A DNA stretch of 64,000 nucleotides from an uncultured Mycoplasmatota bacterium (lineage in GTDB: Bacteria; Bacillota_I; Bacilli_A; RF39; UBA660): the NCBI GenBank assembly GCA_946488855.1, contig CAMLWC010000002.1:7292-71291 (forward strand), read 5' to 3'. The notes beneath the pieces are model-generated. The model searched no databases, was not told the origin of the DNA, and was given only the letters and a program-made list of their open reading frames with translations. Shown here one piece after another: positions 26,700 to 47,405 of the stretch (position 1 is its first letter; every line of letters begins with the position of its first letter). Made by a program: the position numbers and the translations under genes.

Positions 26700-28742
26700 C
26701 TACTCTCCCCAATAACTTCCTATTTTACTTGCTATATCATCATAAGCAATTTTATTGTGTAATTCTTCTTTAATTGATGATAAAACATCAATTGATTCAA
26801 ACATTTTCCCTTTTACTCTTTTATCGACAAATATGTATTCCATTGCTTCAACAATACCTTGATCTTTTGCTTTAACTGCTGAAGTTTTTAAATCAACGGC
26901 AAATCTATATCCATCTTTAATTAATGATTTAATAACCTTTTTATTCTTTGATAATTCTTCATATTGCGCTAAAACAATAATATTATTTTTAGCATATTCA
27001 TCACCAAATAAATTAAATATTTTATCTAATTTATTAGATTTAGTATATAAACTTTCTGGTATATAGAATATATATTTTTTATTAAAATCAGCATTCAACA
27101 TATCTTTAACAACTTGTACCAATAATAATGTTAATAAAACTTCTATTTTATCTTCAGCAACAATGCCATCATAATATGTTTTATCTACAATATAATCACT
27201 ATATACTTTACTAAAATTGATATTATGATTTAGTTCAACAGCATAAGTATTTTTTATTGATAAACTATTATAATTTAATTCAAATAAACTTGTTTCTAAT
27301 TTTTCAATTGTTTCCTTAACAATAGATTTATAAGTTTTTTGAATTTTTAATATACTACTAATCATAGTATTCATTGTTTTTGGATCAACTTCAGTTCCAA
27401 TTAATTTAACCATCTTATTTTTATAAGTTTGTTTTTTTATTTTAGTATCATCAATAACTAGATAAGTGTGTTCTAAATGCATAATTAAAGTAAATATATT
27501 AGTGTATTTTTTAACCTTTTCACTATATTTATTATCAGTACCTTTATATACTTTAATCATTTTTTCTGCTGCTTCTTTTAATGCATTTTCAATTCTAGTA
27601 TTCATATTACGGCCATTATATTCAACATTGACATCTCCGCAATAATTATAATATTTACCATCAATATAAACACTCATAAAGTTTTCTCTAATCGTTGCTT
27701 CATTAGTTTTTAAAGTTTCATCATTATTTAAAACTTCAATAATTTCCTTTAATTCTTCTTCTTTCATAAACATAATTTTTTCGATTATATTTTTGAATTT
27801 TTTCTTTTTATTTTGTAACATTTCTAATTTTAATTCAACTTCAGCAACTTTAGGTTCTTCTTCTTTTTCTACAACGACTGGTTGTTCTTCTTCAATTTCA
27901 ATTTTTTTAGCATAAGCATTTTCGATTTCATCTTTATCAACTTGAATCATTCTAAAATACATAGTTTTATCTAAATCTTCTGCTTCTAAAGGTTTTAAAT
28001 CAGTAATTGTTTCATCAATTTTTTCATCTTTTACTTCTTCAACCTTAGTAACTTTTACTTCTTCATCTTCTTCTTTTATATTATTTTGAATTTTTTCTGG
28101 TTCTGATTTTTCTTTAATATATTCATCATTAACTATTTTTTTCTTATCCTTTTTAATTAATTTAATAATATTTTTTATAAATATTTTTATTTTTTTAACT
28201 ACATTTGCCATAAATACATCAAATTTCTTCATATCTTTTTCCTTCTTATTCTTCTTAATTGTTAATGTTACTAAATAAACAGTAATAATAATTGCAACTA
28301 AAACATAAGGATTAAATATTGTTTTTTTAAATATACCAAAAGCAGGTAATACTTTAACAACTTTTCCAACTATTTGTTCTTGTGTAATTGGATCATCCTT
28401 AGCATCATTAGCATCACCTTTAGTTACATAAGTACCTTGGTATGCCTCAATAACTCTATGAGTTATAAATTCACCATCTTGCTTAAATGTAATAATATCA
28501 TCTAATTTTATATTTTTAGAATACTTAACAACTATCCAATCACCAGGTTCAACTGCTTCACCCATACTTCCTGTTTGCACTTCAAATACAGAGTAACCAA
28601 AAAAACTAGAGTAATCATTACCTAATAATTTAACTTGGATATTGTTATATATAGAAATTAATAATACTATTCCAAAAATAAAAATCAAAATATTTAAAAT
28701 AATATTAGTAATTTTTTCTAATATTTTACCTTTATTTACCAT
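26700..28742 (-). CDS. SipW-type signal peptidase fused to a large cytoplasmic domain of unknown function
   Basis: The first roughly 160 residues are TM, then QTGSMGEAVEPGDWIVV, ITHRVIEA, TKGDANDAKDDP and a second TM, a complete S26B peptidase. About 520 further residues follow: a K/E-rich low-complexity stretch and then a roughly 330-aa globular part. Confidence 0.7.
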   Translation of the reverse strand: MVNKGKILEKITNIILNILIFIFGIVLLISIYNNIQVKLLGNDYSSFFGYSVFEVQTGSMGEAVEPGDWIVVKYSKNIKLDDIITFKQDGEFITHRVIEAYQGTYVTKGDANDAKDDPITQEQIVGKVVKVLPAFGIFKKTIFNPYVLVAIIITVYLVTLTIKKNKKEKDMKKFDVFMANVVKKIKIFIKNIIKLIKKDKKKIVNDEYIKEKSEPEKIQNNIKEEDEEVKVTKVEEVKDEKIDETITDLKPLEAEDLDKTMYFRMIQVDKDEIENAYAKKIEIEEEQPVVVEKEEEPKVAEVELKLEMLQNKKKKFKNIIEKIMFMKEEELKEIIEVLNNDETLKTNEATIRENFMSVYIDGKYYNYCGDVNVEYNGRNMNTRIENALKEAAEKMIKVYKGTDNKYSEKVKKYTNIFTLIMHLEHTYLVIDDTKIKKQTYKNKMVKLIGTEVDPKTMNTMISSILKIQKTYKSIVKETIEKLETSLFELNYNSLSIKNTYAVELNHNINFSKVYSDYIVDKTYYDGIVAEDKIEVLLTLLLVQVVKDMLNADFNKKYIFYIPESLYTKSNKLDKIFNLFGDEYAKNNIIVLAQYEELSKNKKVIKSLIKDGYRFAVDLKTSAVKAKDQGIVEAMEYIFVDKRVKGKMFESIDVLSSIKEELHNKIAYDDIASKIGSYWGE

Positions 28743-28837: not shown

Positions 28838-30448
28838 TTAATCATTCTCTTTAATTTCTTTAGCAACAATTTTTTCAACTTGCACAATAAACCAAATCTT
28901 TTCAATTGTTGTCTCACTTTTTTCTATTTTATTTACTCTTAATATTAATAATATCTTATTAAGTAAATTTTTAAGATTATCTTCATTTAAATCATCTTCA
29001 CTAATATTAATACTATTTAATCGATATTTATTACTAATTGTTTTAGCAATATTATTACTAGAAAAAATTGGTACACCAGTAATAATAATATTAGTTGGAT
29101 TCATTGCAAATAAATCAAAATTATCGCTATATTTAATAATTTCATCATAATCAGTTATATTATAAACTTTTTGAATAGTTAATTTTTTAAAATAATCAAA
29201 ACTATAATATAAATTCAAAACATCAGATATAGTTAATGTATCATTTAATATCATCATTACTTTATCCTTAAAATATTCAACATCATAAGTTTTATATAAC
29301 TCATATAATTCTTTTGCTTTTAAAACTGATTGTAATTTTAATTGTTTTAAAGCACTATCAGATCTAAACTCAAATAATCCTGGTTTACCACTAAAGATTT
29401 TCTTATTTAATTTTTCTAATTCATTTTCTTTAGTTTCTATTTGATCAATAATAGTTTTTAAACCTTTATATTCTTTTTTATCAGTTGTAAGTAATTTTTC
29501 ATATTCATCTTTAAAATATTTAAACATTGGATAAAATTCTAAATAATTTTGATATTCTAAAATATTTAGTTTTAATTTTTCTAAAGCAGGCGCTACTTTA
29601 TCAACATCAGTAACTTCTGGAATTAAAGTTTCAAACGCTGTTTTGCGTCCTTTACTATCACTTAAATATTGTTCGATATCTAATTCTTTAGTTTTAGCCA
29701 TAGCTATTATGTCACTAATAGTTTCTTTACTTGCCATATTTAAATCAATATAAGCATCTTGTAATTTTTCTAAACAATGAGCATAATCTCTAATTTTATT
29801 TTTCTCCATTACTTCTTTTTGTAATGTTAAAATATAATTATTAAATTTACGGCTATTTTTCTTAATTAACTTTCTAAAATTTAACTCTATATGTTGAATA
29901 AGTTCAGGATTTACCCAATAAATTTGTTCAAAAATTTCTGATACTTTATCATAACTACTTAATCTTCTATTTCTTACTTCTAAAAAAGCAGTCATATATT
30001 CATGAACATAACAAGTATAATTAAAATCATCACTTTCTAAATGAATACCTGCTTGTTCAAATTTATCTAATAAACCATTTATTATTTCATTTAAAGATTT
30101 AAAATTAAATGTATCATAATTATTAATTTGATATAGTAAATCATCAAAACACATTTTTTCGACATAAGTATTAGTTGGGTTTAAAAGAAATTTAACATTT
30201 TCTAAAGTTTCTAATTTTTCAGTTAATTTATCTAAATCAGTTGATTCCTTAACTTCAAAACTTTTAGCTTTAGCAATTAAATAATTTCTAGTGCTAGTTT
30301 TATATTCGTCATATCTTTCAATTATATTATCAATTGTTTCATTAAATTTCTTTTTATTTGTTTTAGTTTTAGTAGGCATAGTGGAAATTAATGTTTTTTT
30401 TGCTTCAATATCTTTATTTATAAATTCTAAAAAATTATTCATCTTCAT
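28838..30448 (-). CDS. Hypothetical cytoplasmic protein, 536 aa, helical/coiled-coil character
   Basis: No TM segment or signal peptide and no motif I recognise. Last gene of fibre operon A. A weak hairpin plus T-run overlaps its stop. Confidence 0.5.
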   Translation of the reverse strand: MKMNNFLEFINKDIEAKKTLISTMPTKTKTNKKKFNETIDNIIERYDEYKTSTRNYLIAKAKSFEVKESTDLDKLTEKLETLENVKFLLNPTNTYVEKMCFDDLLYQINNYDTFNFKSLNEIINGLLDKFEQAGIHLESDDFNYTCYVHEYMTAFLEVRNRRLSSYDKVSEIFEQIYWVNPELIQHIELNFRKLIKKNSRKFNNYILTLQKEVMEKNKIRDYAHCLEKLQDAYIDLNMASKETISDIIAMAKTKELDIEQYLSDSKGRKTAFETLIPEVTDVDKVAPALEKLKLNILEYQNYLEFYPMFKYFKDEYEKLLTTDKKEYKGLKTIIDQIETKENELEKLNKKIFSGKPGLFEFRSDSALKQLKLQSVLKAKELYELYKTYDVEYFKDKVMMILNDTLTISDVLNLYYSFDYFKKLTIQKVYNITDYDEIIKYSDNFDLFAMNPTNIIITGVPIFSSNNIAKTISNKYRLNSINISEDDLNEDNLKNLLNKILLILRVNKIEKSETTIEKIWFIVQVEKIVAKEIKEND

Positions 30449-30595: not shown

Positions 30596-31642
30596 CTATT
30601 CATATCCTTGTGTATCTTTTAAGAAATTTAATGAAATATATATTTCAGCGCCATCAGAATCTGTTTCTAGACTATCAATATCTTGTCCTTCAATCCAAAC
30701 ATATACTCTTGTTTTAGTTATACCATCTGGTACAGTAAATAAAGGTTGTTCGAAATCTTCATCAGTCATTGTTTCTTGTAATTCAAAATAATTTGGATCA
30801 AGATTTGGTGAACCAGATACTGTATTAGCTACAAATATAGGACCACCTGCTCTTGTAAATGCATATGTTGGAAACTCTTGTCCATCAATTAAATTAACGC
30901 CATATTTAGTAGCTCTTTCAATAGATAAATCAGAATGTGCTTTACTATTTGGTTCAAAAATAATAGAATAACAATTATTATTACATTCAATATTTTGAAC
31001 TTCATCTGCTGATGCATCTTTAGCAACAGATCCTAACTTAACAATACCAATACGAGCAGAATTTAATAAACCAATCATTTCTTCATCTGCATCTTTTTCC
31101 ATTGTGATTGAAGTACCATATTCAAAATATAAATTATCACTTACTGGAGAACCAGAATCATTTTTGAAAAACAAATCAAATGCTATATAATTATTGTACT
31201 CATTTCTGCCACCTTCATGCATTAAATTAGTTCTTATATAACCATTATTTTTATCCTTATTTGGATATCTAACCCCACTACTTGAAAACATATTAAATAT
31301 CGGACTATCATGATTAGTAATTCCATTTGAAGAAATAGGTACTAATCCACCACCTGCCCATTGACTTGTATTATTAGGATAAGTATATCTTAATCCTCTT
31401 ATAAGTTCATCAGCAGATATAATTAAATCAGTATCAAAATTAATCCCATCTAAAGAAATAGATAATCCAGTATTCTTTTTAACCGTCATAGTAAATGTTT
31501 TTACTCTAACATTTAAATTGGTTGAAAACCACGCATATGTTGAAAAAATAAGCAAAATACCTACTAATACCATAATAGTGATAGTAACTTTTTTATTTGT
31601 TTTTTCGATAATTCTTTGTCTAAAAGTATTTTGTTTTTTCAT
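30596..31642 (-). CDS. Secreted 'STYAWF' family protein (divergent, short member)
   Basis: Signal region ..LLIFSTYAWFSTNLNVRVKTFTMTV. Shared family blocks include LSISLDGINF, GLVPISSNG, YIAFDLFFKNDSG, ARIGIVKLG and the C-terminal ITKTRVYVWIEGQDIDS. Confidence 0.55.
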   Translation of the reverse strand: MKKQNTFRQRIIEKTNKKVTITIMVLVGILLIFSTYAWFSTNLNVRVKTFTMTVKKNTGLSISLDGINFDTDLIISADELIRGLRYTYPNNTSQWAGGGLVPISSNGITNHDSPIFNMFSSSGVRYPNKDKNNGYIRTNLMHEGGRNEYNNYIAFDLFFKNDSGSPVSDNLYFEYGTSITMEKDADEEMIGLLNSARIGIVKLGSVAKDASADEVQNIECNNNCYSIIFEPNSKAHSDLSIERATKYGVNLIDGQEFPTYAFTRAGGPIFVANTVSGSPNLDPNYFELQETMTDEDFEQPLFTVPDGITKTRVYVWIEGQDIDSLETDSDGAEIYISLNFLKDTQGYE

Positions 31643-31665
31643 TTTTCACCACCTAATTAATAAAG

Positions 31666-31692
31666 GAAGAGTAATTAACCAAATTACTCTTC
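31666..31692 (-). promoter_or_regulatory. Intercistronic hairpin between the 441-aa and 348-aa genes
   Basis: 11-bp perfect stem gaagagtaatt/aattactcttc with a 5-nt loop. Only a weak T-tract follows on the minus strand. Candidate partial terminator or mRNA-stabilising element. Confidence 0.45.
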
Positions 31693-31703
31693 TTTATTAT
31701 CAA

Positions 31704-33029
31704 TTATTCACCGTTTGTTGGAGTAATATCTGTACTTGGTCCATCATAACCTGGAATATCAGATTCATTATATCTTTCTTTAGTGAATCCAAAATTAACT
31801 GTAATTTTCTTTCCTAATGAAGCAAAGTCGTAATTATCGATATCTTGTCCTTCAATCCAAATGTAAACTCTAACTTTTGTAATACTATTTGGAGCTAAAG
31901 TCATAAATTGTGGACGATCTTTACCAGCAACATTTTTCATTGTATCAGTAAAGTACCCAATACCATCTGCTTTAGAATAAGTCATATCAACTAAATTATA
32001 TGTACTTCTTACTCCTTCTGTATAAGTTTTATAATCTACAGTATTTTTTGTATAAGTATTGTAAGCAGCACCATCATAAATATTAACATTATCAGCAATT
32101 TCAATATTATTACTGATTGCATATGTTGGATAAGCTGTTCCATCTTCTACAGCAGTACATTTTGAACCAGCAGTATATGAATCTGGATCATTAACATCGT
32201 CACCATCAGTAGATGCTTTTCTTAATAAACAAGATTTTTGATACCAATTAATAGCATTTTGTACGTGTTTAGTATCGTTTGGTTCCCAAATTTGAGCATC
32301 TCTACAAATTCCAGTTACTTGAACTTGGCCATCAGCAGCAGGTACATTAGCACAAGTTATTTTTGTGATATTATCAGCTGAAGTTGTATCTGCTTTAACA
32401 CGCCCGATTTGTGCGAAAGCAACTCTTACTGAATTTTCAATACCAGCTTTTTCTTTTCCACCATTTGCAGAAACTTTAACTTCTGAATTAGTAGTTAAAT
32501 AAATTGCTTCTTCATTTAATGGATTATTATCAGTATAATAAGCATTTCCTGATAAGTTTTTAATGAACAAGTCAAATGCTACATAACCATTTCCTTCTTC
32601 ATATTCAACACCACCAGCATTTAAAGTTGTATGATTATCAACTTGTTCAGATAATAATCTATAACCACCAGTAACAGCAGTTAAACTTCCTTTTTCATAT
32701 AATTTCATTCTTGATGAAGCTTTATCCATATCACCAACAGATGACATTGGAATTAATCCTTCGCCAGGTTGATCTAACCATTGGTTAGCATTTCCTTCAT
32801 AAGGATCAGCATTTCTTGCATCTAATGTATATTTCCAGTTTTCTCCATCCATAGATAAGAATAAACCTTCTGTTGTTGCTATATTAACACTAAATTCTGC
32901 AACATTAACAGTTTTCATACCAATAAACCATGCATAGGTTGAAACTGATAATAAAATTGCACACAAAGAACAAATAGCAACTAAATCTCTAATTCTTTTA
33001 CTTTTTTTACTATTATGTTTTTTTGCCAT
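31704..33029 (-). CDS. Secreted 'STYAWF' family protein, operon A copy (paralogue of 43873-45189)
   Basis: Signal region RIRDLVAICSLCAILLSVSTYAWFIGMKTVNV. Family blocks: GLIPMSSVGDMD, GGYRLLSEQV, GYVAFDLFIKNLSGNAYY, AGIENSVRVAFAQIGRV, IWEPNDTKHVQNAINWY, YPTYAIS and LAPNSITKVRVYIWIEGQDIDNYDFASLGKKITVNFGFTKE. Confidence 0.6.
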   Translation of the reverse strand: MAKKHNSKKSKRIRDLVAICSLCAILLSVSTYAWFIGMKTVNVAEFSVNIATTEGLFLSMDGENWKYTLDARNADPYEGNANQWLDQPGEGLIPMSSVGDMDKASSRMKLYEKGSLTAVTGGYRLLSEQVDNHTTLNAGGVEYEEGNGYVAFDLFIKNLSGNAYYTDNNPLNEEAIYLTTNSEVKVSANGGKEKAGIENSVRVAFAQIGRVKADTTSADNITKITCANVPAADGQVQVTGICRDAQIWEPNDTKHVQNAINWYQKSCLLRKASTDGDDVNDPDSYTAGSKCTAVEDGTAYPTYAISNNIEIADNVNIYDGAAYNTYTKNTVDYKTYTEGVRSTYNLVDMTYSKADGIGYFTDTMKNVAGKDRPQFMTLAPNSITKVRVYIWIEGQDIDNYDFASLGKKITVNFGFTKERYNESDIPGYDGPSTDITPTNGE

Positions 33030-33059
33030 AATTTCCTCCTATATTTAAATTTTAGTAAC

Positions 33060-33085
33060 CTAGAAGATTAATTAAAATCTTCTAG
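33060..33085 (-). promoter_or_regulatory. Intercistronic hairpin between the 414-aa and 441-aa genes
   Basis: 10-bp perfect stem ctagaagatt/aatcttctag with a 6-nt loop in the 64-nt gap. No strong T-run. Confidence 0.45.
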
Positions 33086-33093
33086 TTACCTTA

Positions 33094-34338
33094 TTATTCA
33101 CCTAATGTTGGTCTCTTATCAACATCACTTGGTAATGCTGGATCACCATCATAGTTGATATCTTCACCATATAATTGTTCTTTAGTAAATCCGAATGAAA
33201 GTGAGATTTGTCCTCCTAGTGAAGCAAAATCATAATTATCAACGTCTTGTCCTTCAATCCAAATATAAACTCTAATTTTTGTAATACTATTTGGAGCTAA
33301 ATAGAATAATTCTGGTCTTTCAGTTCCTTTTAAATTTTTCATTGTATCTGTGAAAGTAGATACTTTCATTAATTTGCCTTTAGTAGCAGTCATAGCAACT
33401 GAATTAGTATAACCATTGTATTCAGTACCATCATATACATCTACTTGATCAGTGTAATTAATTTCACCACTTACTGCATATGTTGGAACAAAAGTACCAT
33501 CAGTAACAGCACCACATGCACCACTAAATGAACTTGGATTAGTAATATCAGCCGCATTTCTCTTTAAGCATGATTTTGTATACCATTGAATTGCATTATT
33601 TACGTGTTTTGTATCATTTGGTTCCCAAATTGTAGCATCTCTATTTGTACAAATACTAGAAACGCCATTACCACCTGTACAATTAATTCCTTGAATTTTT
33701 GAAGTATTTTCTTCAGTTGCAACTACACGTCCGATTTGTGCGAAAGCAACTCTTACTGAATTTTCAATACCAGCTGTTTTTTGTCCAGCAGCACCAGTTT
33801 TAACAACTGATTGTGGAGTTAAATAAATTCCTTCTTCATTTTTTATATCAACTGTATCATAATAAGCATTTCCTGATAAGTTTTTAACAAATAAATCAAA
33901 TGCTACATATCCATCTTGTTCATCTGTATCATTTTCAACTTGGCTAGCCATTACACGATAACCACCAGGTGATGCAGTGAAGCTTCCTTTTTCAAATAAA
34001 ATTAAGTTTGAAGAATCAGTGTCGATTTTTCCAACTGTTGACATTGGAATTAATCCTTTACCACCCCAACTGTTTGTATTAGTCAAATATGTTCCTTTAA
34101 CACCAGGATCACTATAATTACTTTCGTTAATTGTTACTGTGTCACCAAAATTTTTACCATCTAATGAAAGTGATAAACCATCGATTGCAGCAATTTCTAC
34201 ATCGAATGCGGTAACATTAACAGTTTTCATACCAATAAACCATGCATAAGTTGAAACTGATAAAATAGTAGCACATAAACCAGCTCCAACAAGCAATCTT
34301 TTGACACGTTTTTCATGTCTTCTATTTCTTTTTTCCAT
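33094..34338 (-). CDS. Secreted 'STYAWF' family protein, operon A copy (paralogue of 45200-46594)
   Basis: Signal region RVKRLLVGAGLCATILSVSTYAWFIGMKTVNV and the same conserved blocks as 31704-33029 (e.g. AGIENSVRVAFAQIGRV, IWEPNDTKHVNNAIQWY, ITKIRVYIWIEGQDVDNYDFASLG). Confidence 0.6.
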   Translation of the reverse strand: MEKRNRRHEKRVKRLLVGAGLCATILSVSTYAWFIGMKTVNVTAFDVEIAAIDGLSLSLDGKNFGDTVTINESNYSDPGVKGTYLTNTNSWGGKGLIPMSTVGKIDTDSSNLILFEKGSFTASPGGYRVMASQVENDTDEQDGYVAFDLFVKNLSGNAYYDTVDIKNEEGIYLTPQSVVKTGAAGQKTAGIENSVRVAFAQIGRVVATEENTSKIQGINCTGGNGVSSICTNRDATIWEPNDTKHVNNAIQWYTKSCLKRNAADITNPSSFSGACGAVTDGTFVPTYAVSGEINYTDQVDVYDGTEYNGYTNSVAMTATKGKLMKVSTFTDTMKNLKGTERPELFYLAPNSITKIRVYIWIEGQDVDNYDFASLGGQISLSFGFTKEQLYGEDINYDGDPALPSDVDKRPTLGE

Positions 34339-34357: not shown

Positions 34358-35053
34358 TTAATTTTCTACGTACTCTGAATTGAAATCCATATAAACAGAG
34401 AATTCTCCACCTAAGATATCATCTGTACATTCAGGATCACTACCTTCAACCCAAATGACAATTGTGTATTTATCGATATCTCCAGGTTTAAAATTATCAA
34501 CTTTATTACGAGCAACTAATTTTTCTTCTTCAAACGGAATAGTATCTGGCTCATTTCTTCCATTAGAAGCTTTCTTAGCATATGTAACAGGTTGTCCGTT
34601 TCGATAGACTCTAATTCTTACAGCACTGTCAATTTTTTTGATAACATCTGTGATAAAAAGTTCACTCCAATAGCTTGTGATTTCATCTCCAACATTCTCA
34701 ACAAAAAATGTATAAGCAAGGTATTCAGAACCATTGTGAGAACCACCAGTAGAATCATCTAAATTATCAGGTAACCAATTACCAGATATATTAGTGAATG
34801 TTTTAGGCGAAGCAACTGATAATTCTGCTTGATACACTTTATAATTAGGATCATCGTAAATGATAATACCTCTACTAAAGTATAAGTTTTTATCCAGTGT
34901 TATACTAAAATTACCACTATTATAAATAATACCTATAACTAAATACAAAAGAATAAATAGGAAAAGAAATATTAATAAAGCTATTCTAAAGATCTTTTTA
35001 AGTTTTCTTTCATTTTTGATTTTCTTTGAACTAAGCTTAATCTTATCTTCCAT
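34358..35053 (-). CDS. Signal-anchored small fibre-locus protein (paralogue of 46608-47300)
   Basis: K-rich N-terminus, one TM helix, then IIYNSGNFSITLDKNLYF. C-terminal DIDKYTIVIWVEGSDPECTDDILGGEFSVYMDF shares the WxEGxD strand motif of the larger family. First gene of operon A. Confidence 0.5.
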   Translation of the reverse strand: MEDKIKLSSKKIKNERKLKKIFRIALLIFLFLFILLYLVIGIIYNSGNFSITLDKNLYFSRGIIIYDDPNYKVYQAELSVASPKTFTNISGNWLPDNLDDSTGGSHNGSEYLAYTFFVENVGDEITSYWSELFITDVIKKIDSAVRIRVYRNGQPVTYAKKASNGRNEPDTIPFEEEKLVARNKVDNFKPGDIDKYTIVIWVEGSDPECTDDILGGEFSVYMDFNSEYVEN

Positions 35054-35118: not shown

Positions 35119-35170
35119 ATTATAACATACATATTTTTTTTGTCAATATAATATGTCGATAATTGTCGAA
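35119..35170 (-). promoter_or_regulatory. Operon A promoter: TTGACA / TGn-TATAAT with two 0A-box-like heptamers upstream
   Basis: On the minus strand the -35 TTGACA is at 35141-35146, with a 16-nt spacer and TGT-TATAAT (-10 at 35119-35124). On the plus strand TGTCGAT is at 35154-35160 and a perfect TGTCGAA at 35164-35170, 10 bp apart. The whole block is duplicated at 47354-47405. Confidence 0.6.
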
Positions 35171-35355: not shown

Positions 35356-35967
35356 ATGGCAATGAAATTTAAAATATTGTTAGTTATTAGTTCTTTGGCA
35401 TTGACATTAAGTTTAATGAGTAATACTTATTCAAGATATGTTGCTGATGTTGATAGCAATATTGATTTGTTATTTGCTAAGTGGCAAATTTTAGTTAATG
35501 AAAATGATATTACCAATAATACTACAACTTCTATCAATATTACTCCAGTAATGGAAGAAAATGTTAACGTTGCTGAAAATACAGTAGCCCCTTCTTCTAA
35601 AGGTTATTTTGATATTGATATTGATCCTTCTAACGCCGGTGTTTCATTTGATTATTCAATCAACTTAAATGTTGAAGATGAAAATATGCCTGATTTAATG
35701 ATCAGTAAATACGCAGTTTTAGATAAGGATTATAACGAAGGAGATCAAATAACTACAACCACTATTTTAAATAATACAATAGATGGAACTGTTGATTATA
35801 ATGCTACAGCACACGAACCATTTACAATAAGAGTATTCTTTGAATGGTATGAAGGTGTTGATGAAAAAATGGATGATGAAGCAGATACAAATATAGGTTA
35901 TGAAGCTGCATTAAATAATAAATCATTATTAGTGAATGCATCAATTAGTTTCAATCAAAAAATGTAG
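35356..35967 (+). CDS. Secreted TasA-like small protein (SipW-cognate-type signal)
   Basis: Signal ..LTLSLMSNTYSRYVADVD. IDLLFAKWQILVNEND and APSSKGYFDIDIDPSNAGVSFDYSINL parallel the 403-aa ORF at 22231-23442. C-terminal FTIRVFFEWYEGVDEKMDDE. Confidence 0.5.
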   Translation: MAMKFKILLVISSLALTLSLMSNTYSRYVADVDSNIDLLFAKWQILVNENDITNNTTTSINITPVMEENVNVAENTVAPSSKGYFDIDIDPSNAGVSFDYSINLNVEDENMPDLMISKYAVLDKDYNEGDQITTTTILNNTIDGTVDYNATAHEPFTIRVFFEWYEGVDEKMDDEADTNIGYEAALNNKSLLVNASISFNQKM

Positions 35968-36000: not shown

Positions 36001-36022
36001 AAACACAATTTTTATTGTGTTT
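36001..36022 (-). terminator. Hairpin terminator after the 177-aa gene
   Basis: 9-bp stem aaacacaat/attgtgttt with a 4-nt loop. T-tracts lie on both sides, so it may act bidirectionally. Confidence 0.5.
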
Positions 36023-36555
36023 TATTCTTCTACATCTACTTCATCACCATATTTAATTTCAACTATTAATGCATATAATTCATAGATAAAGATTAAGAAA
36101 CAAGGTACTAATACGATAAATAAGAAGCCCCATTGTGATTCAATAATTCCTAAAACTGTTCCAATATCATTATATACTTTAGTAGGTCTACCAATTAAAT
36201 ATTTAATTGAATATGTTTCACCATTTTCTAATGTAAGATAATCATCCATAACTTCTCCAACTTTGCCAATATTTATATCAGCAGTTTTAGACATCTTATC
36301 AACTTTATAAACGAATACTTCTTCACCTTTTTGTAAATTTTCTGGTGCTGCTGCTTCAACTAAAACTAAATCACCTTTTTGATATTCTTCATGACTTACT
36401 TTATCTTTTAAAATTACTAATGAAGTTTCACCAAATACTGTTACACGATAATCATTAAAGTTTAATAAGAGAATTGTCATAAATAATGCAAAGGTAAAAT
36501 AAACAATTCCTAATGTTACTAATAATACTTTCTTAATTTTTTTTAAAACTTTCAT
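36022..36555 (-). CDS. SipW-like protein lacking the canonical catalytic motifs (pseudo-peptidase?)
   Basis: Same size and topology (N- and C-terminal TM helices) and the same GD..V / G..V..V strand pattern as SipW paralogues. However, SGSM(E/D)P is replaced by GETSLVIL, and no THRV/THEV His box is recognisable. Confidence 0.45.
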   Translation of the reverse strand: MKVLKKIKKVLLVTLGIVYFTFALFMTILLLNFNDYRVTVFGETSLVILKDKVSHEEYQKGDLVLVEAAAPENLQKGEEVFVYKVDKMSKTADINIGKVGEVMDDYLTLENGETYSIKYLIGRPTKVYNDIGTVLGIIESQWGFLFIVLVPCFLIFIYELYALIVEIKYGDEVDVEE

Positions 36556-36564
36556 ACTTCCTCC

Positions 36565-37422
36565 TTAATTACATTCTACTTCTAATAAAGAAAATTCATT
36601 TATATCATAAGTAGCATCTTTATCTACTTTATAAAATATATAACTTAAATTATCTTTACTAGGTATTTCTAAAATTATTTCATTAATATAACCATTTGAC
36701 ATATTATAATTTGTTATATTTTCGTTATCAATTCTTAATTTATTAGCATCCCAATTTATTTTAACACATTTTTTAGTGTCAGAAGAATTAATTACTGTTA
36801 ATCGATCATAATTAGAAAATGATTGATATAACATATCTGTTTTTTCTATTAAGTTTTTATCTTTTTTAAGAATAAATATTCCTGTTAGTTTTTTTTCATA
36901 TGGTTCAGTAGTAACAACTTCAATGTTAGCAGTTACATTATCATTTTCTACATCAAAATATATATCTGAAGTAGCTTTTTGAATAACCCAATCATAACCT
37001 TTTACTTCACAAGTTGCTTTATCAAAATCGGTTGTATCTATACCATCATTTGTATTATTTACACAACTATTATAACTAGATAATGTCCCATAATAAACAT
37101 TCGAATCAGTTCCATTGACTTTACAATTACTACCATCATCTAATATACAAGTTACTTTATATTTTATATCATAATCAGTAACTAAAACATCATTGATATT
37201 ATTTTTTAAATTAAAATGAATACTTGTTCCATCCCAAACATTATTAACATTTTTAACGTTATTTCCTAGTTGATCACTACTTAAATAAAATCCTTGAGAA
37301 TTTAAATAATAATTCCAAACTGTATTAGATACGTATTTTGCTAATGTAAAACCGTTTGTAATAAGTAAGATTGTACCTAAAAATATAACAATCATTATTA
37401 AATATTTGCGCATTTTAATCAC
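36565..37422 (-). CDS. Secreted protein with SipW-cognate-like signal peptide, 285 aa
   Basis: N-terminus ..IFLGTILLITNGFTLAKYVSNT. N/T/D-rich mature part. No other motif recognised. Confidence 0.4.
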   Translation of the reverse strand: MIKMRKYLIMIVIFLGTILLITNGFTLAKYVSNTVWNYYLNSQGFYLSSDQLGNNVKNVNNVWDGTSIHFNLKNNINDVLVTDYDIKYKVTCILDDGSNCKVNGTDSNVYYGTLSSYNSCVNNTNDGIDTTDFDKATCEVKGYDWVIQKATSDIYFDVENDNVTANIEVVTTEPYEKKLTGIFILKKDKNLIEKTDMLYQSFSNYDRLTVINSSDTKKCVKINWDANKLRIDNENITNYNMSNGYINEIILEIPSKDNLSYIFYKVDKDATYDINEFSLLEVECN

Positions 37423-37951
37423 CTAACTTCTGCCAACTATTTATTTCTACATCAATGAAATCAGCTAAATTTGTATATTCTAATGAATTATATTCACTAG
37501 GAAAAGTTACTTTTAATTTGTAATTATCTAATGTTTCCTCGGTATGTTCTAGTGTTTGAATTGAAGAATTACATACTAATTCATTTTTTTCATTTCTTGA
37601 ATAAGTTTCATCACATTTCATTATCAATTCTTCTGTTTCCCCTACTTTGTATAACTCAATATCTAAAGGCATAAAATGAAATGTTTTAATAGTAATTTGA
37701 TATTCAACTGTTACGTTACTTAATTCATTATCTTTATTAGTAACTGAAAATAAGTATTCATCATTACTACCAGGATTTAGATTACTTAAATTTAATTCCA
37801 AATGATCTAATTGTTTACTTTCAAATACAAATTTAGCTATTTTTTGATCTATTTTTACATTAATGTTAGAATTAAACATTGAATATGTAACACCAGTACC
37901 TAAAAATATAGTTATTAAAATAAATAAAATTATCAATACTTTATGTTTCAT
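37415..37951 (-). CDS. TasA/camelysin-like small secreted protein
   Basis: Signal ..IFLGTGVTYSMFNSN (compare TasA GGGTWAAFND). LNLSNLNPGSNDEYLFSVTNKDN parallels TasA VNLSNLKPGDKLTKDFQFENNG. 178 aa. Confidence 0.6.
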   Translation of the reverse strand: MKHKVLIILFILITIFLGTGVTYSMFNSNINVKIDQKIAKFVFESKQLDHLELNLSNLNPGSNDEYLFSVTNKDNELSNVTVEYQITIKTFHFMPLDIELYKVGETEELIMKCDETYSRNEKNELVCNSSIQTLEHTEETLDNYKLKVTFPSEYNSLEYTNLADFIDVEINSWQKLGD

Positions 37952-41361: not shown

Positions 41362-41464
41362 TCTTTTGCACTATGTTTCAACTAATTTATATAAATAATT
41401 AGTTGGAAAAATTATTTAATAAATTATTTCTTTCATAAAATAAATTTTGAAAGGAGGTAATAAA

Positions 41465-42439
41465 ATGACAAATATAGAACTCAAAAATAAATTATTAGAT
41501 ATAGTTAATAATTATAAAACAATTTATGGTATGGGCACTTGGGGTTGGATAGTAACGAAATCAGCTATTGAAAGAAAGAAAAAAGAAAGCTCTTGGTGGA
41601 CAACTTCTAGGATTAATACTATTTCTAAAGTAATTGATAAAAATTATTTCATGTTTGATTGTATTGGATTAATTAAAGGTATACTATGGGGTTGGAACGG
41701 AAATAGTAAAGCAATATATGGTGGTGCTGGATATAATATAAATAAAGTTCCTGATGTAAATACTGAAGGTATGCTTGCTAAATGTACTAATGTTTCAACT
41801 AATTTTAAAACCATAGAAATTGGAGAATATTTATGGATGAGTGGTCATTGCGCTATTTATATTGGTGATGGATTATGTGTTGAATGTACTCCAAAATGGA
41901 CTAACAATGTTCAAATAACTGCGGTAGCAAATATAGGCAATAAAAAAGGTTATAATTCCAGAAATTGGACTAAGCATGGAAAATTACCTTATATTACCTA
42001 TTTAAAAGAAGAAAGTAAAACTTATAAAATAATTGTTGAAAAAATACCAACATACACTAATTCAGAAAATGCAAAAAATAAAAAAAATCCAATCGGTACA
42101 TATAAAAAAGATACTTATTTTATTTTTAACGAAGCAAATGGTATGATCAATATTACTAAAATAAAAAATACTCCAGGTGCTTGGATTAATCCTAATGACA
42201 ATATAATTAAAGAAAATATAGAAAATCCAATTGAAGAAACACCAGTTTCTCCTGAAATGCCGGTTGAACCTGAAATACCTATCGATGTTGAAATACCTAT
42301 TGAAGAACCTAATACTACACCACCAATTGAAACACCAGAAGAATCAATTGAAGAAAATCCTGATGAAAATAAAGAAAACATTTTTATTAGAATTTTCAAA
42401 TTAATTATCAATTTCATATCTAATTTATTTAAAAAATAA
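41465..42439 (+). CDS. NlpC/P60-like cell-wall hydrolase with Pro/Glu-rich linker and C-terminal hydrophobic helix
   Basis: AAAGGAGG RBS before the ATG at 41465. Cys box FDCIGLIKG, His box GHCAIYIGDG. PE-rich tract PIEETPVSPEMPVEPEIPIDVEIPIEEPNTTPPIETPEES. Terminal FIRIFKLIINFISNLF. Confidence 0.55.
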   Translation: MTNIELKNKLLDIVNNYKTIYGMGTWGWIVTKSAIERKKKESSWWTTSRINTISKVIDKNYFMFDCIGLIKGILWGWNGNSKAIYGGAGYNINKVPDVNTEGMLAKCTNVSTNFKTIEIGEYLWMSGHCAIYIGDGLCVECTPKWTNNVQITAVANIGNKKGYNSRNWTKHGKLPYITYLKEESKTYKIIVEKIPTYTNSENAKNKKNPIGTYKKDTYFIFNEANGMINITKIKNTPGAWINPNDNIIKENIENPIEETPVSPEMPVEPEIPIDVEIPIEEPNTTPPIETPEESIEENPDENKENIFIRIFKLIINFISNLFKK

Positions 42440-42605
42440 TAGAACAAAAATCAAATAAATTTGACTGCATCTAATCTCACGATTAGATATTTCTCCTTCT
42501 TTGGTGGCTTTCGCGTTTTCCTCTAGAGACTAATTTCCGATAGTTGCTACCGTACTTGTTTTTATTTTATCTTTTTTTGCAGTGAAATTTTTCGAGGTTT
42601 GTTCA
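42440..42605 (-). ncRNA. Putative omega-RNA scaffold / right end of tnpB element, copy 2
   Basis: Non-coding tail nearly identical to 2597-2760, e.g. the shared ttgactgcatctaatctcacgatta and agagactaatttccgatag. Confidence 0.5.
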
Positions 42606-43748
42606 TGTAAACAACTTAGTATTATTTATTAACCCTTCCCACATTATATTTATTGCCGCATTTATATCTCTATCATTTTCATTTTTGCATTTTGAACATG
42701 TCCAGTTTCGTTTGCTTAAGTCTTTAATTTCTTCATTTTTAGTATTGCAATGACTGCATATTTGACTACTTGGATAATATGTATCTATTTGATAAAAATG
42801 TTTATTTTTCCATTTACTTTTATACTCTAATTGTCTTATTATTTCGCTTAAACTTGCATCACTTATATATTTGGACATTTCTTTTCTTTCTATTAATTTT
42901 TTTGTTTGTAGTTTTTCGGTTATTATTAAGTCGTTTTCATTCACTATTTTTTTTGTGATTTTATGTATTGTATAAATTCTAGCATTTTTTAGTTTCTTAT
43001 ATGTTTCCTTTATTTTGTTTTTCACTTTATAATAATTTTTACTTCCTTTTACTTTTTTACTTAACCATTTTTGTAAATTTTTTATTCTTTTTTCATATTT
43101 GGTTATGTATTTTTTATTTTCATATTTTTCGCCGAAACTTGTTATTACTAAATCTTTTACTCCTAAGTCTATTCCTACTACCTTTGTTGGTATTATATTT
43201 TTTTCTTCTAAATCTTCCTCATATAATACTGATACATAGTATCTATTTATTTTTTTACTTATTGTAGCGTTTATTATTCTTCCTTTTATTTCTTTTGTTT
43301 TTCGATAGCCTCTTATTTTCATATTCTTTAATTTTGGTAAGGTAATTGTTTTATTTGTCATATCCAATTTAATATTTTCATATATCTTATTTTTATAATT
43401 ATTTTTTATATAGTTTGTACGATAACTATTTTTACTATATTTATCTTTATATTTTGGATAATGTTTGGTTCTATAAAAATTTTTAAAAGCTTCTTCCAAA
43501 TCAAATATAGTAGTTGATAGTGCCATACTATCTATCTCAGTTAACCATGGATACGTTTGTTTTAAAAGTGGTAATTCTTTTATACAATCTTTTTTTGTTT
43601 TAGTTATTTTGTTTTGTTTATATAATTTTTCTTTTTCATATAACATTGTATTATAAATAAATCTAGTACATCCTAAAGTTTTATTTATTAATTCTTGTTG
43701 TATTTTATTTGGATATAATCTAAATTTATATGTTTTATATATCTTCAT
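42603..43748 (-). CDS. tnpB: TnpB (IS605 OrfB) RNA-guided nuclease-family protein
   Basis: 381 aa from the ATG at 43748 (GGTGGTGA RBS). MKIYKTYKFRLYPN N-terminus, VGIDLGVKDL (RuvC-I), Zn finger CSHCNTKN..CSKCKNEN, DRDINAAINI (RuvC-III). Confidence 0.9.
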   Translation of the reverse strand: MKIYKTYKFRLYPNKIQQELINKTLGCTRFIYNTMLYEKEKLYKQNKITKTKKDCIKELPLLKQTYPWLTEIDSMALSTTIFDLEEAFKNFYRTKHYPKYKDKYSKNSYRTNYIKNNYKNKIYENIKLDMTNKTITLPKLKNMKIRGYRKTKEIKGRIINATISKKINRYYVSVLYEEDLEEKNIIPTKVVGIDLGVKDLVITSFGEKYENKKYITKYEKRIKNLQKWLSKKVKGSKNYYKVKNKIKETYKKLKNARIYTIHKITKKIVNENDLIITEKLQTKKLIERKEMSKYISDASLSEIIRQLEYKSKWKNKHFYQIDTYYPSSQICSHCNTKNEEIKDLSKRNWTCSKCKNENDRDINAAINIMWEGLINNTKLFT

Positions 43749-43843
43749 TGTATCACCACCATAATAAAATTTTACTATACACACATATGTTTGTCAACAC
43801 ATTTATTTAAAATTTTGCAAAGAACTTTCCTAGTATATAAAAA

Positions 43844-43866
43844 ATATCACACAAATTGTGTGATAT
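43844..43866 (-). terminator. Rho-independent terminator of fibre operon B
   Basis: 10-bp perfect stem atatcacaca/tgtgtgatat with a 3-nt loop, 7 nt after the 438-aa stop, followed on the minus strand by TTTTTT. Confidence 0.7.
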
Positions 43867-43872
43867 TTTAAA

Positions 43873-45189: not shown

Positions 45190-45199
45190 TTTATACCTC

Positions 45200-46594
45200 C
45201 TAATTTATTGTCCATATATCATCTACTCGCGTAGCTGTTTTAACTACTCCACCATCTTTAAATGTAAATTTAGTCATCCAATTTGGTAAAGTAAATTCTT
45301 TTTTATCATTGTCATAAGTAATTTTTGAATTTGAAATATCAGTTATTTCACCAGTATTAACATAAGATACTGTTTGGTCTCTAACTACATCATCTGGTAA
45401 TTCTGGATCACCATCATAATCGATATCTTCTCCATAGAATCTTTCTTTAGTAAATCCAAATGATACAGAGATCTTTCTTCCTAACGAAGCAAAATCATAG
45501 TTGTCTATATCTTGTCCTTCTATATAAATATAGATTCTTACCTTAGTAATACTATTTGGAGCAAGTGTTATAAAATCAGGTCTATTAACTCCTTCATTAA
45601 ATTTATCAGTATCAGTAAAGTAATCTACTTTGTATAATTTACCTTTTTGATATGAACTTGCTATTGAATTTGTATAGCCGTTATATTCATAGCCATCATA
45701 CACATCAACTTGATCTGTATAATCAATTTCACCACTTACTGCATAAGTTGGATAATAAACTCCATCTTTAATAGTTTTACAAGGTCCACTAAATGAAGCA
45801 GGATTAGTTATATCACTGCCAATTCTTTTACGACATGATGTTGTATACCAACTAATAGCATTAGTAACATGTTTGGTGTCATTAGGTTCCCAAATTTGAG
45901 CATCCCTATCAGCACATATACCAGTAACATCATCATTTGATTTACAAGTAATGCCTGTAATAACATCAACATCATCTTCTACTGCTATAACACGTCCAAT
46001 TTGTGCAAAAGCCACTCTTACTGAATTTTCAATACCAGCCTTTATTTCGCCATCTTCAGCAACTTTTACTTCTGATTCTGGATCTAAATAAATTGCTTCT
46101 TCATTTTTAGGGTTTAATTCTTTATAATATGCATGACCTGATTTATTTTTAATAAATAAATCGAACGCAACATATCCATCAACCTCTTTGGCACCAGTAT
46201 TTTTTACTCTTGCAGCCATTACACGATAACCACCAGGTGATGCTGTAAAACTTCCTTTTTCATACATTATAAGTCTTGATGAGCCAGTATCAATCTTACC
46301 AACTGATGAAACAGGAACTAATCCTTTGCCACCCCAACTGTTAGTGTTTCCAGGATAACTTACAGTTTTATGATTTTTTTCATTAATAGTTACTGTTGTT
46401 TCCCAATTTTCTCCATCTAATGATAATAATAAACTATCAATAGCAGCAATGGAAACATCAAAACTAGAAACATTAACAACCTTCATACCAATAAACCATG
46501 CATAAGTTGAAACGGTTAGAATAATCGTACATAAAACAGCAGCAACAAGTAATTTCTTTACTCTTGTTTCATGTTTTTTCTTACGTCTTCTCAT
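45200..46594 (-). CDS. Secreted 'STYAWF' family protein, operon B copy with C-terminal extension (paralogue of 33094-34338)
   Basis: Start moved to the ATG at 46594 (GAAGGGA RBS, 13 nt after the upstream stop). LCTIILTVSTYAWFIGMKVVNV and the same blocks. An extra roughly 60-aa tail (..VSYVNTGEITDISNSKITYDNDKKEFTLPNW..). Confidence 0.6.
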   Translation of the reverse strand: MRRRKKKHETRVKKLLVAAVLCTIILTVSTYAWFIGMKVVNVSSFDVSIAAIDSLLLSLDGENWETTVTINEKNHKTVSYPGNTNSWGGKGLVPVSSVGKIDTGSSRLIMYEKGSFTASPGGYRVMAARVKNTGAKEVDGYVAFDLFIKNKSGHAYYKELNPKNEEAIYLDPESEVKVAEDGEIKAGIENSVRVAFAQIGRVIAVEDDVDVITGITCKSNDDVTGICADRDAQIWEPNDTKHVTNAISWYTTSCRKRIGSDITNPASFSGPCKTIKDGVYYPTYAVSGEIDYTDQVDVYDGYEYNGYTNSIASSYQKGKLYKVDYFTDTDKFNEGVNRPDFITLAPNSITKVRIYIYIEGQDIDNYDFASLGRKISVSFGFTKERFYGEDIDYDGDPELPDDVVRDQTVSYVNTGEITDISNSKITYDNDKKEFTLPNWMTKFTFKDGGVVKTATRVDDIWTIN

Positions 46595-46607
46595 AATCCC
46601 TTCTTTC

Positions 46608-47300
46608 TTATTCTGCAACTATTGGTTTAAAATTCATACGAACTTTAAATTCACCACCTAAAATATTATCAGTACAATCAGGATCTTCGCCTTCAATCCA
46701 TAAAACTATTGTATACTTGTCAATATCGTTAGGTTTAAAATTAGTAACATCTTCACTCATGATTATCTTATCATCAATAAATGGAACTGTATTTGGTTCT
46801 ACTTCTCCTTCACTTGATAATTTTGCATAAGTTTGATATTCTCCATTCTTATAAATTCTAACTCTGATGGCAGCATCAACATCCTTGATAACATCATCGA
46901 TAATAACCTCTCTAGTATAACCAGCAACTTCATCTCCAGTATTTTCAATATAAAATGTATATACTAAATAACTATCGCCATTATGTGATCCACCTTCATA
47001 ATCTTTGATTTCTTCCGGTAACCATATTTCCTTGATACTGTTAAAAGTTTCAGGTGCTTTAGCTAATAATTCTGTACGATATACTTTATATTGAAAATCG
47101 TCATAAATAATTATGCCATTATCTAAATAAAGATTTTTATCGAGTGTTATGCTAAAATTACCACTATTATAAACAATACCTATTACAAAATATAAAATAA
47201 GTAAAAGCAAAAGTAATAATATCACAGCTAGTTTAAATTTTTTCTTGAGTTTTTTTTCTTTTTTTAATTTATCGGTAGTTTTAGTAAATTTACTTTCCAT
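46608..47300 (-). CDS. Signal-anchored small fibre-locus protein (paralogue of 34358-35053)
   Basis: IGIVYNSGNFSITLDKNLYL.. and DIDKYTIVLWIEGEDPDCTDNILGGEFKVRMNF. First gene of operon B. Confidence 0.5.
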   Translation of the reverse strand: MESKFTKTTDKLKKEKKLKKKFKLAVILLLLLLLILYFVIGIVYNSGNFSITLDKNLYLDNGIIIYDDFQYKVYRTELLAKAPETFNSIKEIWLPEEIKDYEGGSHNGDSYLVYTFYIENTGDEVAGYTREVIIDDVIKDVDAAIRVRIYKNGEYQTYAKLSSEGEVEPNTVPFIDDKIIMSEDVTNFKPNDIDKYTIVLWIEGEDPDCTDNILGGEFKVRMNFKPIVAE

Positions 47301-47353: not shown

Positions 47354-47405
47354 ATTATAACATACCTTCTTTTTTTGTCAATATTAATTGTCGACTATTG
47401 TCGAA
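47354..47405 (-). promoter_or_regulatory. Operon B promoter: duplicated TTGACA / TGn-TATAAT with two 0A-box-like heptamers
   Basis: -10 at 47354-47359 and -35 at 47376-47381, with a 16-nt spacer. TGTCGAC at 47389-47395 and a perfect TGTCGAA at 47399-47405. The geometry is identical to 35119-35170. The boxes face the divergent nuclease gene in forward orientation. Confidence 0.6.

Follow-up and report, generated by a model that had tools for sequence, protein, structure and literature searches.

The stretch of DNA analyzed here (the window; 64,000 nucleotides, contig CAMLWC010000002.1, assembly GCA_946488855.1, positions 7,292 to 71,291 of the forward strand) comes from an uncultured Mycoplasmatota bacterium (GTDB lineage Bacteria; Bacillota_I; Bacilli_A; RF39; UBA660) and carries five paralogous genes, arranged in two operons, for large and presumably secreted proteins of 348 to 464 amino acids (aa). 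These proteins fall into three ancient classes (A, B, and C), and profile comparisons indicate that they are homologous to the 231- and 230-aa membrane-anchored proteins encoded in the same operons. Taken broadly, they are most likely the principal constituents of a fiber or coat at the cell surface. The interpretation that we favor, and to which we give an even chance, is that the products of the five genes are processed by SipW and build a surface filament or similar polymer, A and B as its major subunits and C as a minor one, for which the non-cleavable paralogue would serve as the base. By analogy, the family may work like the TasA system, to which homology was demonstrated by neither profile nor fold comparison.

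Three classes of large proteins and a membrane-anchored paralogue

All five open reading frames (ORFs) that the initial annotation had assigned to the family are present on the minus strand at the coordinates it gave (Table 1), including the start at 46594 of the fifth gene. For this gene the ORF list of the window begins at a TTG (46618) inside the upstream gene; the ATG at 46594 is the better start because a ribosome-binding site (AGAAGGG) precedes it and the upstream stop is 13 nt before it. In a MAFFT alignment of the five paralogues, approximately 80 columns are invariant, and the identities to the 441-aa member are 71, 58, 58, and 34%, the last being that of the 348-aa member. The long identical blocks described for all five proteins are exact or near-exact in the four members that are 58–71% identical, whereas the 348-aa member contains only degenerate forms, such as STYAWFSTNLNV, IFEPNSKAHS, and FPTYAFT. 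The conserved blocks are specific to the family and not generic repeats of unrelated proteins: 242 of the 275 matches to the patterns EGQD[IV]D.. or AFD[LI]F.KN in 596 Gb of species-representative genomes are confirmed family members. The mature large proteins are acidic (isoelectric point ~4.5) and rich in Gly, Ala, Thr, Ser, Asp, and Asn. They contain two to four conserved Cys residues, of which four are positionally conserved in classes A and B (C226 and C242 in the numbering of the 441-aa protein, plus two more) and two in class C; a single one lies in the acidic loop of the anchors. Probably these cysteines form extracellular disulfides, which would be notable for an anaerobe. The 464-aa class A copy has an additional C-terminal extension of ~50 aa (…YVNTGEITDISNSKITYDNDKKEFTLPNWMTKFTFKDGGVVKTATRVDDIWTIN) that is absent from the other four proteins, and some relatives, found in the search at 50% representation, are far longer (up to 1,017 aa).

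The 441-aa and 348-aa queries retrieved 2,961 and 537 clusters (90% identity), respectively, none of which has a name or a domain, and the family comprises 1,742 representatives at 50% clustering (E ≤ 0.001). The five paralogues and 10 remote relatives gave no Pfam match, the large proteins matched neither NCBIfam nor the PDB (phmmer and a profile search of PDB sequences), and no description of the family was found in the literature searched. The large family is new to the searched literature and the curated libraries; as a type of system, the SipW-linked secreted fiber cluster is already known. With ~3,000 members at 90% clustering, all from uncultured low-GC Bacilli of gut and rumen, the family deserves a definition and a structure. 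Its carrier lineage is widespread in the guts of humans, chickens, and ruminants. The 73 genomic loci that were recovered derive from metagenome-assembled genomes (MAGs) of gut, rumen, or digester, labeled as uncultured Bacilli, Mollicutes, or Tenericutes, and near-identical DNA comes mainly from chicken-gut metagenomes. Some loci bear other labels, namely Muribaculaceae (L037, L038, L047, L057, L066, and L070), Ignavibacteriales (L065), Actinomycetes (L068), and Clostridium (L029). Because these contigs have a GC content of 25–30% and carry the operon found in the Bacilli MAGs, the bins have probably been given wrong taxonomic labels.

The membrane-anchored paralogues link the large proteins to a simpler form. 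When profiles built from the recovered loci were compared, hhalign aligned the large family with the 231/230-aa proteins with a probability of 81–84% (P ~1e-5; 1.3e-5 at 81%) over 41–42 C-terminal columns, in which LAPNSITKVRVYIWIEGQDIDNYD...ITVNFGFTKE of the large family corresponds to FKPGDIDKYTIVIWVEGSDPECTDD...FSVYMDFNSE of the anchors. The alignment score of 48.3 compares with 15.7±2.5 (maximum 21.2) for 40 column shuffles, 19.0±3.9 (maximum 28.4) for 40 block shuffles, and 18.4 for the reversed alignment. At a lower alignment threshold, a collinear match spans the whole 231-aa protein, pairing GYVAFDLFIKN with EYLAYTFFVEN, SVRV with AVRIR, and PTYA with VTYA, followed by the WIEGxD module. 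A single insertion of ~165 residues, located after the SVRV block and before the C-terminal module, accounts for most of the additional length of the large proteins. This bears out the earlier proposal that the large members carry large insertions. On these profile comparisons the large proteins and the anchors are judged to be homologous. The initial annotation had also extended the C-terminal module to a 203-aa protein encoded nearby; this part did not hold, since the match between the large family and the 203-aa protein was not significant, with a probability of 2% for the full profile and, for a core-only profile, no more than 25% (P 8e-4) over 13 motif columns.

An AlphaFold model of the 231-aa protein (45-sequence alignment; mean predicted local distance difference test score [pLDDT] 81.2, predicted template-modeling score [pTM] 0.72) consists of a helix at residues 9–44 and a compact sandwich of ~11 strands. 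Its best Foldseek matches are PA14/CBM-type sandwiches (the insert of 3AC0, 2XVK, Cea1A 5A3L, BcsB, and CBM51/61), with seven matches at E ≤ 1e-3 (E from 3.5e-4, probability 0.6–0.97) and template-modeling (TM) scores of at most 0.28. The anchor and these domains resemble each other in an acidic-loop motif of Ca2+ type near the C-terminal strands. They differ in that PA14/CBM domains are inserted in an enzyme or adhesin, whereas the 231-aa protein is free-standing and membrane-anchored; in addition, the scores are weak and the model of the large protein does not retrieve PA14/CBM.

Gene order was examined by translating all ORFs of the 73 loci and searching them with the proteins of the window. 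The conserved order is the 231-aa protein (first gene in 63 of the 73 loci), class A (414/472 type), class B (441/438 type), class C (348 type), and a 536-aa coiled-coil protein. A–B pairs occur in tandem in up to three copies (L018 and L020), and the genome studied here has a second anchor–A–B operon at 43873–47300 (operon 2). In a FastTree tree of 224 members, class C forms a clean clade (58 of 58 sequences, support 1.0), as does class B (66 sequences, support 0.8), around which class A is paraphyletic. This topology indicates that the paralogy of the three classes is ancient and that the classes are obligate partners.

Relation to TasA and the N-terminal junction

The initial annotation had suggested that the five proteins, together with the smaller ones, belong to one superfamily with TasA, and for the large proteins and the anchors this was not supported by the comparisons made. 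The reference was the mature Bacillus subtilis TasA sequence, which is identical to chain A of PDB entry 8AUR, and a TasA-family profile of 59 sequences of ≥195 aa, taken from 62 TasA/CalY/camelysin relatives (29–99% identity), all with PF12389. This domain had no match at E ≤ 0.1 in the five paralogues, the anchors, or 10 distant relatives. Comparison of hidden Markov models (HMM-HMM) with the TasA profile gave a probability of 0.3% for the large family as a whole, with 0.6% for class A and 0.3% each for classes B and C. Core-only and mature-only profiles of the family reached 0.1% and the anchors 0.5%; of the other cluster proteins, the 203-aa protein reached 3% and a 285-aa protein 2%. A TasA-like core hidden by the insertion was considered and rejected, because the family profile from which the insertion had been removed still gave no TasA match. 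The AlphaFold2 model of the 441-aa protein (52-sequence alignment; mean pLDDT 84.7, pTM 0.84) is confident. It shows a helix at residues 7–37, with pLDDT below 50 at residues 34–36, followed by a β-rich domain in which the conserved C-terminal module forms the last two long strands. In Foldseek this model had no match at E ≤ 0.001 in the PDB (best E 0.89, TM ≤0.16) or in BFVD, and no TasA entry (5OF1, 8AUR) was among the 50 PDB matches listed; the 231-aa model likewise retrieves no TasA. Within the reach of these tools, neither model shows a structural resemblance to the folds of the TasA superfamily.

The cluster nevertheless holds a relative of TasA. When a single TasA sequence and then the 59-sequence profile were compared with every family of the locus, only the 178-aa protein was linked (hhalign 81%, P 1.2e-5, over 78 columns covering the signal peptide and the N-terminal half), and it served as the positive control. 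Two more proteins group with it, the 285-aa protein (hhalign 95%; 36565–37422) and the 203-aa protein (79%; 35356–35967), and none of the three has a direct PF12389 match. Judged from these profiles, the cluster appears to contain a genuine TasA-like lineage (178, 285, and 203 aa) and a separate lineage (the anchor and classes A, B, and C), between which no homology is detectable.

What the large proteins may have in common with TasA is the junction between the signal segment and the ectodomain. Residues 30–46 (vSTYAWFigMxtVxVxxF) belong to the best-conserved stretches of the family, with a mean top-residue frequency of 0.78 in 224 members; within the signal, the charged and the hydrophobic part reach 0.47–0.48. 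Comparison of the TasA precursor (P0389) with the 8AUR chain places the cut of TasA between TWA and AFND, and a Phe at P2' is a SipW-specific feature (PMC10269814). In hhalign alignments ...GVTYSMFNS of the 178-aa protein is placed on ...GGTWAAFND of TasA, and ...VSTYAWFIG of the large family is placed on the 178-aa protein. The 231/230-aa proteins do not have the junction motif and contain IIYNSGNF instead.

A proposed surface polymer and the alternatives

The two operons appear to be strongly transcribed. The sequence TTGACA-N16-TATAAT, the perfect sigma-A consensus, occurs exactly twice in the window, where 0.07 occurrences are expected, and one copy lies directly upstream of each operon. 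Contigs of 95–99% identity from a chicken-gut metatranscriptome (X24) cover both operons at a word depth of 10–43, and a polycistronic RNA contig of 2,489 nt includes the 230-aa gene, class A, and the start of class B. In the same run the depth was ~3–8 for class C, 0–4 for the operon of the 1109-, 178-, and 285-aa proteins, 0–3.5 for most of 7.4–21 kb, and 5–16 for the part encoding McrBC-like proteins and peptidase, and most housekeeping genes stayed at 0–4; these values are assembler contig depths from metagenomes of related strains and are rough rather than quantitative. Across the hairpin between classes B and C the depth of the RNA contigs falls from ~26 to ~3, and class C, downstream of it, is 5–9 times lower. 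Since the depth pattern is uneven, it plausibly reflects RNA rather than carry-over of DNA, with A and B well above C, and the suggestion of high expression made from the sequence is plausible in view of the two perfect promoters and these depths. The large proteins are apparently among the most strongly expressed products of the lineage and would dominate the cell surface, which would make them prime candidates for contact with the host and its immune system, for phage receptors, and for handles in enrichment or cultivation.

A feasible model for the putative polymer may be as follows. The precursors would be exported by Sec via the N-terminal hydrophobic helix, which is seen in the sequences and the model. 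A SipW-type (S26B-like) peptidase of the cluster would then cut S-T-Y-A|W-F, the site that is aligned via the 178-aa protein with G-T-W-A|A-F of TasA. The freed and near-invariant arm WFIGMKTVNV, poorly packed and of low confidence in the model of the monomer, might enter the sandwich of the next subunit by donor-strand exchange, for which the fibers of TasA and BsaA are the mechanistic precedent (PMC9674648; 10.1101/2024.11.04.621531). Classes A and B would be the abundant repeat units and class C, probably a minor subunit, an adaptor or tip, roles that are consistent with the gene order, the attenuator-like hairpin, and the RNA depth. The 231/230-aa paralogue, which has the core of the sandwich and the acidic-loop module at its C-terminus but not the cleavage motif, would stay in the membrane as an acceptor-only base, and the invariant E-G-Q-D-x-D loop probably binds Ca2+, like the sites common in PA14/CBM sandwiches.

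Several points weigh against this interpretation. Cleavage, polymerization, and surface location are all inferred. The N-terminus of the large family is linked to the 178-aa protein only weakly (hhalign 38%), and among the curated NCBIfam models of SipW signals, searched against the N-terminal 60-mers, TIGR04090 (BsaA family) left no more than a trace in class C (E 0.087). A donor-strand groove could not be demonstrated in the model, for which no structural analogue was found, and the PA14/CBM-like matches of the anchor model would be just as compatible with surface proteins that bind glycans. The roughness of the depth values also counts here.

The proposed polymer can be compared with two known systems. 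Like TasA (B. subtilis tapA-sipW-tasA; PF12389; 5OF1, 8AUR) and CalY/camelysin of Bacillus cereus, the large proteins would be secreted β-sandwich proteins encoded beside archaeal-type SipW peptidases, with an analogous junction (T-aromatic-A, cleavage site, x-F) followed by a conserved N-terminal segment, an anchor-like accessory partner (the 231-aa paralogue, as against TapA), and strong expression of the operon. They differ from TasA in that homology is undetectable by sequence or profile (≤0.6%) and by Foldseek, in a subunit size approximately twice as large (~45 kDa), in the three obligate classes and the homologous membrane anchor, and in a host range confined to uncultured gut Bacilli; moreover, their cluster adds a McrBC-like GTPase module, the coiled-coil protein, and a secreted 1109-aa protein. 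The sipW-bsaA-bsaB-bsaC operon of Clostridium perfringens (BsaA; TIGR04090; 10.1101/2024.11.04.621531) likewise encodes several paralogous matrix proteins, and the proposed assembly is of the same kind (Sec export, a membrane-held precursor, exchange of N-terminal arms, SipW cleavage, and surface-attached oligomers). By contrast, the similarity to BsaA is limited to the sub-threshold N-terminal trace, the subunits of the large family are much larger, and no test made here pointed to an N-E-K isopeptide triad in them.

The wider neighborhood permits a bolder form of the same idea. Genes for McrB-like, DUF2357 (McrC-like), and signal-peptidase-family proteins lie 2–10 kb downstream of the family genes and are syntenic in related genomes. 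DUF2357 was detected by Pfam in a 374-aa protein; in the 509-aa McrB-like protein the GTPase domain went undetected by Pfam at E ≤ 0.01. An association of McrBC and peptidase was named CoCoPALM by Bell et al. (2024) in a single paragraph that deferred its analysis (PMC11090510), and no later paper on it was found in the literature searched. The neighborhood described there appears to be the same, comprising a membrane GTPase of the McrB-like type, an McrC-like protein with DUF2357, and proteins of the signal-peptidase family; putative fiber subunits are unmentioned. The large family may supply the missing “cargo” of this association, by which the role of the GTPase becomes directly testable. 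It is tempting to speculate, although we consider it unlikely, that the genes specify a new Gram-positive filament, an alternating A/B heteropolymer of ~45-kDa subunits with a fold that has no analogue, with C as cap or adaptor, which grows from the membrane paralogue and whose export or assembly is driven or gated by the CoCoPALM GTPase and the SipW-type peptidases. If true, this would be a fiber-assembly pathway dependent on nucleoside triphosphates, unrelated to sortase, type IV, chaperone-usher, and curli systems and evolutionarily independent of TasA.

The alternative that survives best, doubtful as we find it, is a non-filamentous coat or a set of tethered glycan-binding adhesins, in which the signal-anchor stays uncleaved, YAWF marks the junction of membrane and ectodomain, the domains are PA14/CBM-like Ca2+-dependent lectin or S-layer-like units, and the multiple copies provide diversity of ligands or antigens. 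The matches of the 231-aa model to PA14 and carbohydrate-binding sandwiches (probability up to 0.97), the invariant acidic loop, the gut habitat, and the amplification of A–B cassettes all agree with it, and high expression suits a coat protein. However, the Foldseek matches have TM ≤0.28 and E values of only ~1e-4 to 1e-2, the large proteins match nothing, and the fixed A–B–C order with one dedicated motif-less paralogue suggests co-assembly; furthermore, the T-Y-A|x-F junction is common to the other secreted proteins of the cluster and TasA, and the three SipW-like genes of the cluster need substrates. A quite improbable alternative is that the proteins are true but highly diverged members of the TasA/camelysin family, with a jelly-roll core, insertions of ~200 aa, and a C-terminal strand-loop-strand common to TasA. 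The context is of the same kind (SipW-type peptidases and the TasA-like 178-aa neighbor), the junction motif is similar, a strand Y-x-A-F-x-x-F-x-x-N-x-S-G recalls F-Q-F-E-N-N-G-S of TasA on inspection of the sequences, and the TIGR04090 trace points the same way; set against these are the absence of PF12389 matches, the HMM-HMM values of 0.1–0.6% with or without the insertion, the empty profile search of the PDB, and the failure of both the large-protein and anchor models to retrieve TasA. That the proteins are secreted enzymes (e.g., glycan-active or proteolytic) using the invariant E249, H255, D153, N199, and R202 is hardly credible: several polar residues, including the E-P-N...H block, are invariant and the proteins are secreted and acidic, but no enzyme family or solved enzyme fold was matched, and three obligate ordered classes, an anchored paralogue, very strong promoters, and cassette amplification typify structural subunits.

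Other filament systems were also considered. Pilins of the type IV or Tad kind were rejected, as the N-termini do not have a class III signal (G|F/M-x-x-x-E) and no match to a prepilin peptidase or TadA/PilB was found among 20 proteins of the locus. The “conserved gut pilin” cluster of TANB77 was rejected as a counterpart, being an unrelated Tad-type system.

Regulatory elements, composition, and neighboring genes

The features of the two operons and their surroundings are collected in Table 1.

Table 1. Genes, promoters, and hairpins of the two operons and their neighborhood (positions in the window).
Feature	Position	Strand	Evidence and remarks
680-aa protein with S24/S26-type signal peptidase domain	26700..28742	-	PF00717, 26 bits, above curated cut-off; syntenic in longer loci; candidate processing enzyme
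536-aa coiled-coil protein	28838..30448	-	55/73 loci, directly after class C in nearly all; no Pfam match
Class C subunit, 348 aa	30596..31642	-	Divergent and shorter, 34% identity; clade 58/58, support 1.0; always last among the family genes of the operon
Hairpin with U-rich tail between class B and class C	31666..31692	-	Terminator scan; -16.7 kcal/mol, z -4.1; likely a partial terminator or attenuator
Class B large subunit, 441 aa, modeled member	31704..33029	-	Alignment, AlphaFold model; class B clade pure, 66 sequences, support 0.8
Hairpin after class A gene	33030..33093	-	15-bp stem, no U-run; -16.2 kcal/mol, z -4.0
Class A large subunit, 414 aa	33094..34338	-	ORF, alignment, synteny
231-aa membrane-anchored paralogue	34358..35053	-	N-terminal transmembrane helix without YAWF motif, minimal β-sandwich ectodomain, terminal WVEGSDPECTDD module
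Promoter of operon 1	35119..35146	-	TTGACA, 16-nt spacer, TG-n-TATAAT, 12/12, extended -10
177-aa SipW-like protein	36022..36555	-	Weak TIGR02228 match, E 2e-4, under cut-off; conserved in 37 loci
178-aa protein	37415..37951	-	Only locus protein with detectable TasA-family relation
Hairpin and U-run after operon 2	43800..43872	-	13-bp stem, then UUUUUU; -13.4 kcal/mol, z -2.75; likely an intrinsic terminator
Class B large subunit of operon 2, 438 aa	43873..45189	-	ORF, alignment
Class A large subunit of operon 2, 464 aa from ATG (472 aa from upstream TTG)	45200..46594	-	C-terminal extension of ~50 aa
230-aa membrane-anchored paralogue of operon 2	46608..47300	-	56% identical to 231-aa protein
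Promoter of operon 2	47354..47381	-	Same perfect consensus, extended -10 TG

The spacers of the two promoters are near-identical (AAAAAA..GTATGT), and the promoter was therefore duplicated together with the operon. The lower AT content that had been noticed in the family genes is real at the level of whole genes, the GC content of the five being 0.307 compared with 0.236±0.034 for 51 other ORFs of the window. The excess is due to amino-acid composition, because it is confined to codon positions 1 and 2 (GC1 0.42 vs. 0.35, GC2 0.393 vs. 0.250), whereas the third position is the same (GC3 0.104 vs. 0.112). The unchanged GC3 contradicts the distinct origin that had been offered as one explanation.

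After the coiled-coil protein, the conserved order continues with the 1109-aa protein, the 178- and 285-aa proteins, and the 177-aa SipW-like protein (37–39 loci). Where the flank permits, it also includes the 680-aa peptidase fusion, the McrB-like and DUF2357/McrC-like proteins, and proteins of 187 and 403 aa, and the gene order of this McrBC-peptidase part is kept in the loci that are long enough to show it. An S26B-like (archaeal-type) signal peptidase is co-located with the family in a conserved operon context, with PF00717 above its cut-off and TIGR02228 weak.

An ORF at 20612–21613 (minus strand) encodes dimerization and transpeptidase domains of a penicillin-binding protein, which suggests that the organism makes peptidoglycan and bears on how a 45-kDa subunit or a polymer would cross the wall. 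The interval between operon 2 and the operon of the 1109-aa protein contains a TnpB-like ORF of 393 aa (42603–43784, minus strand) and a 330-aa ORF with a Pro/Glu-rich tail (41447–42439, plus strand) that has a counterpart in L001 only; the 1109-aa gene comes next after the 438-aa gene in L002 and L003, where the 330-aa ORF has no counterpart.

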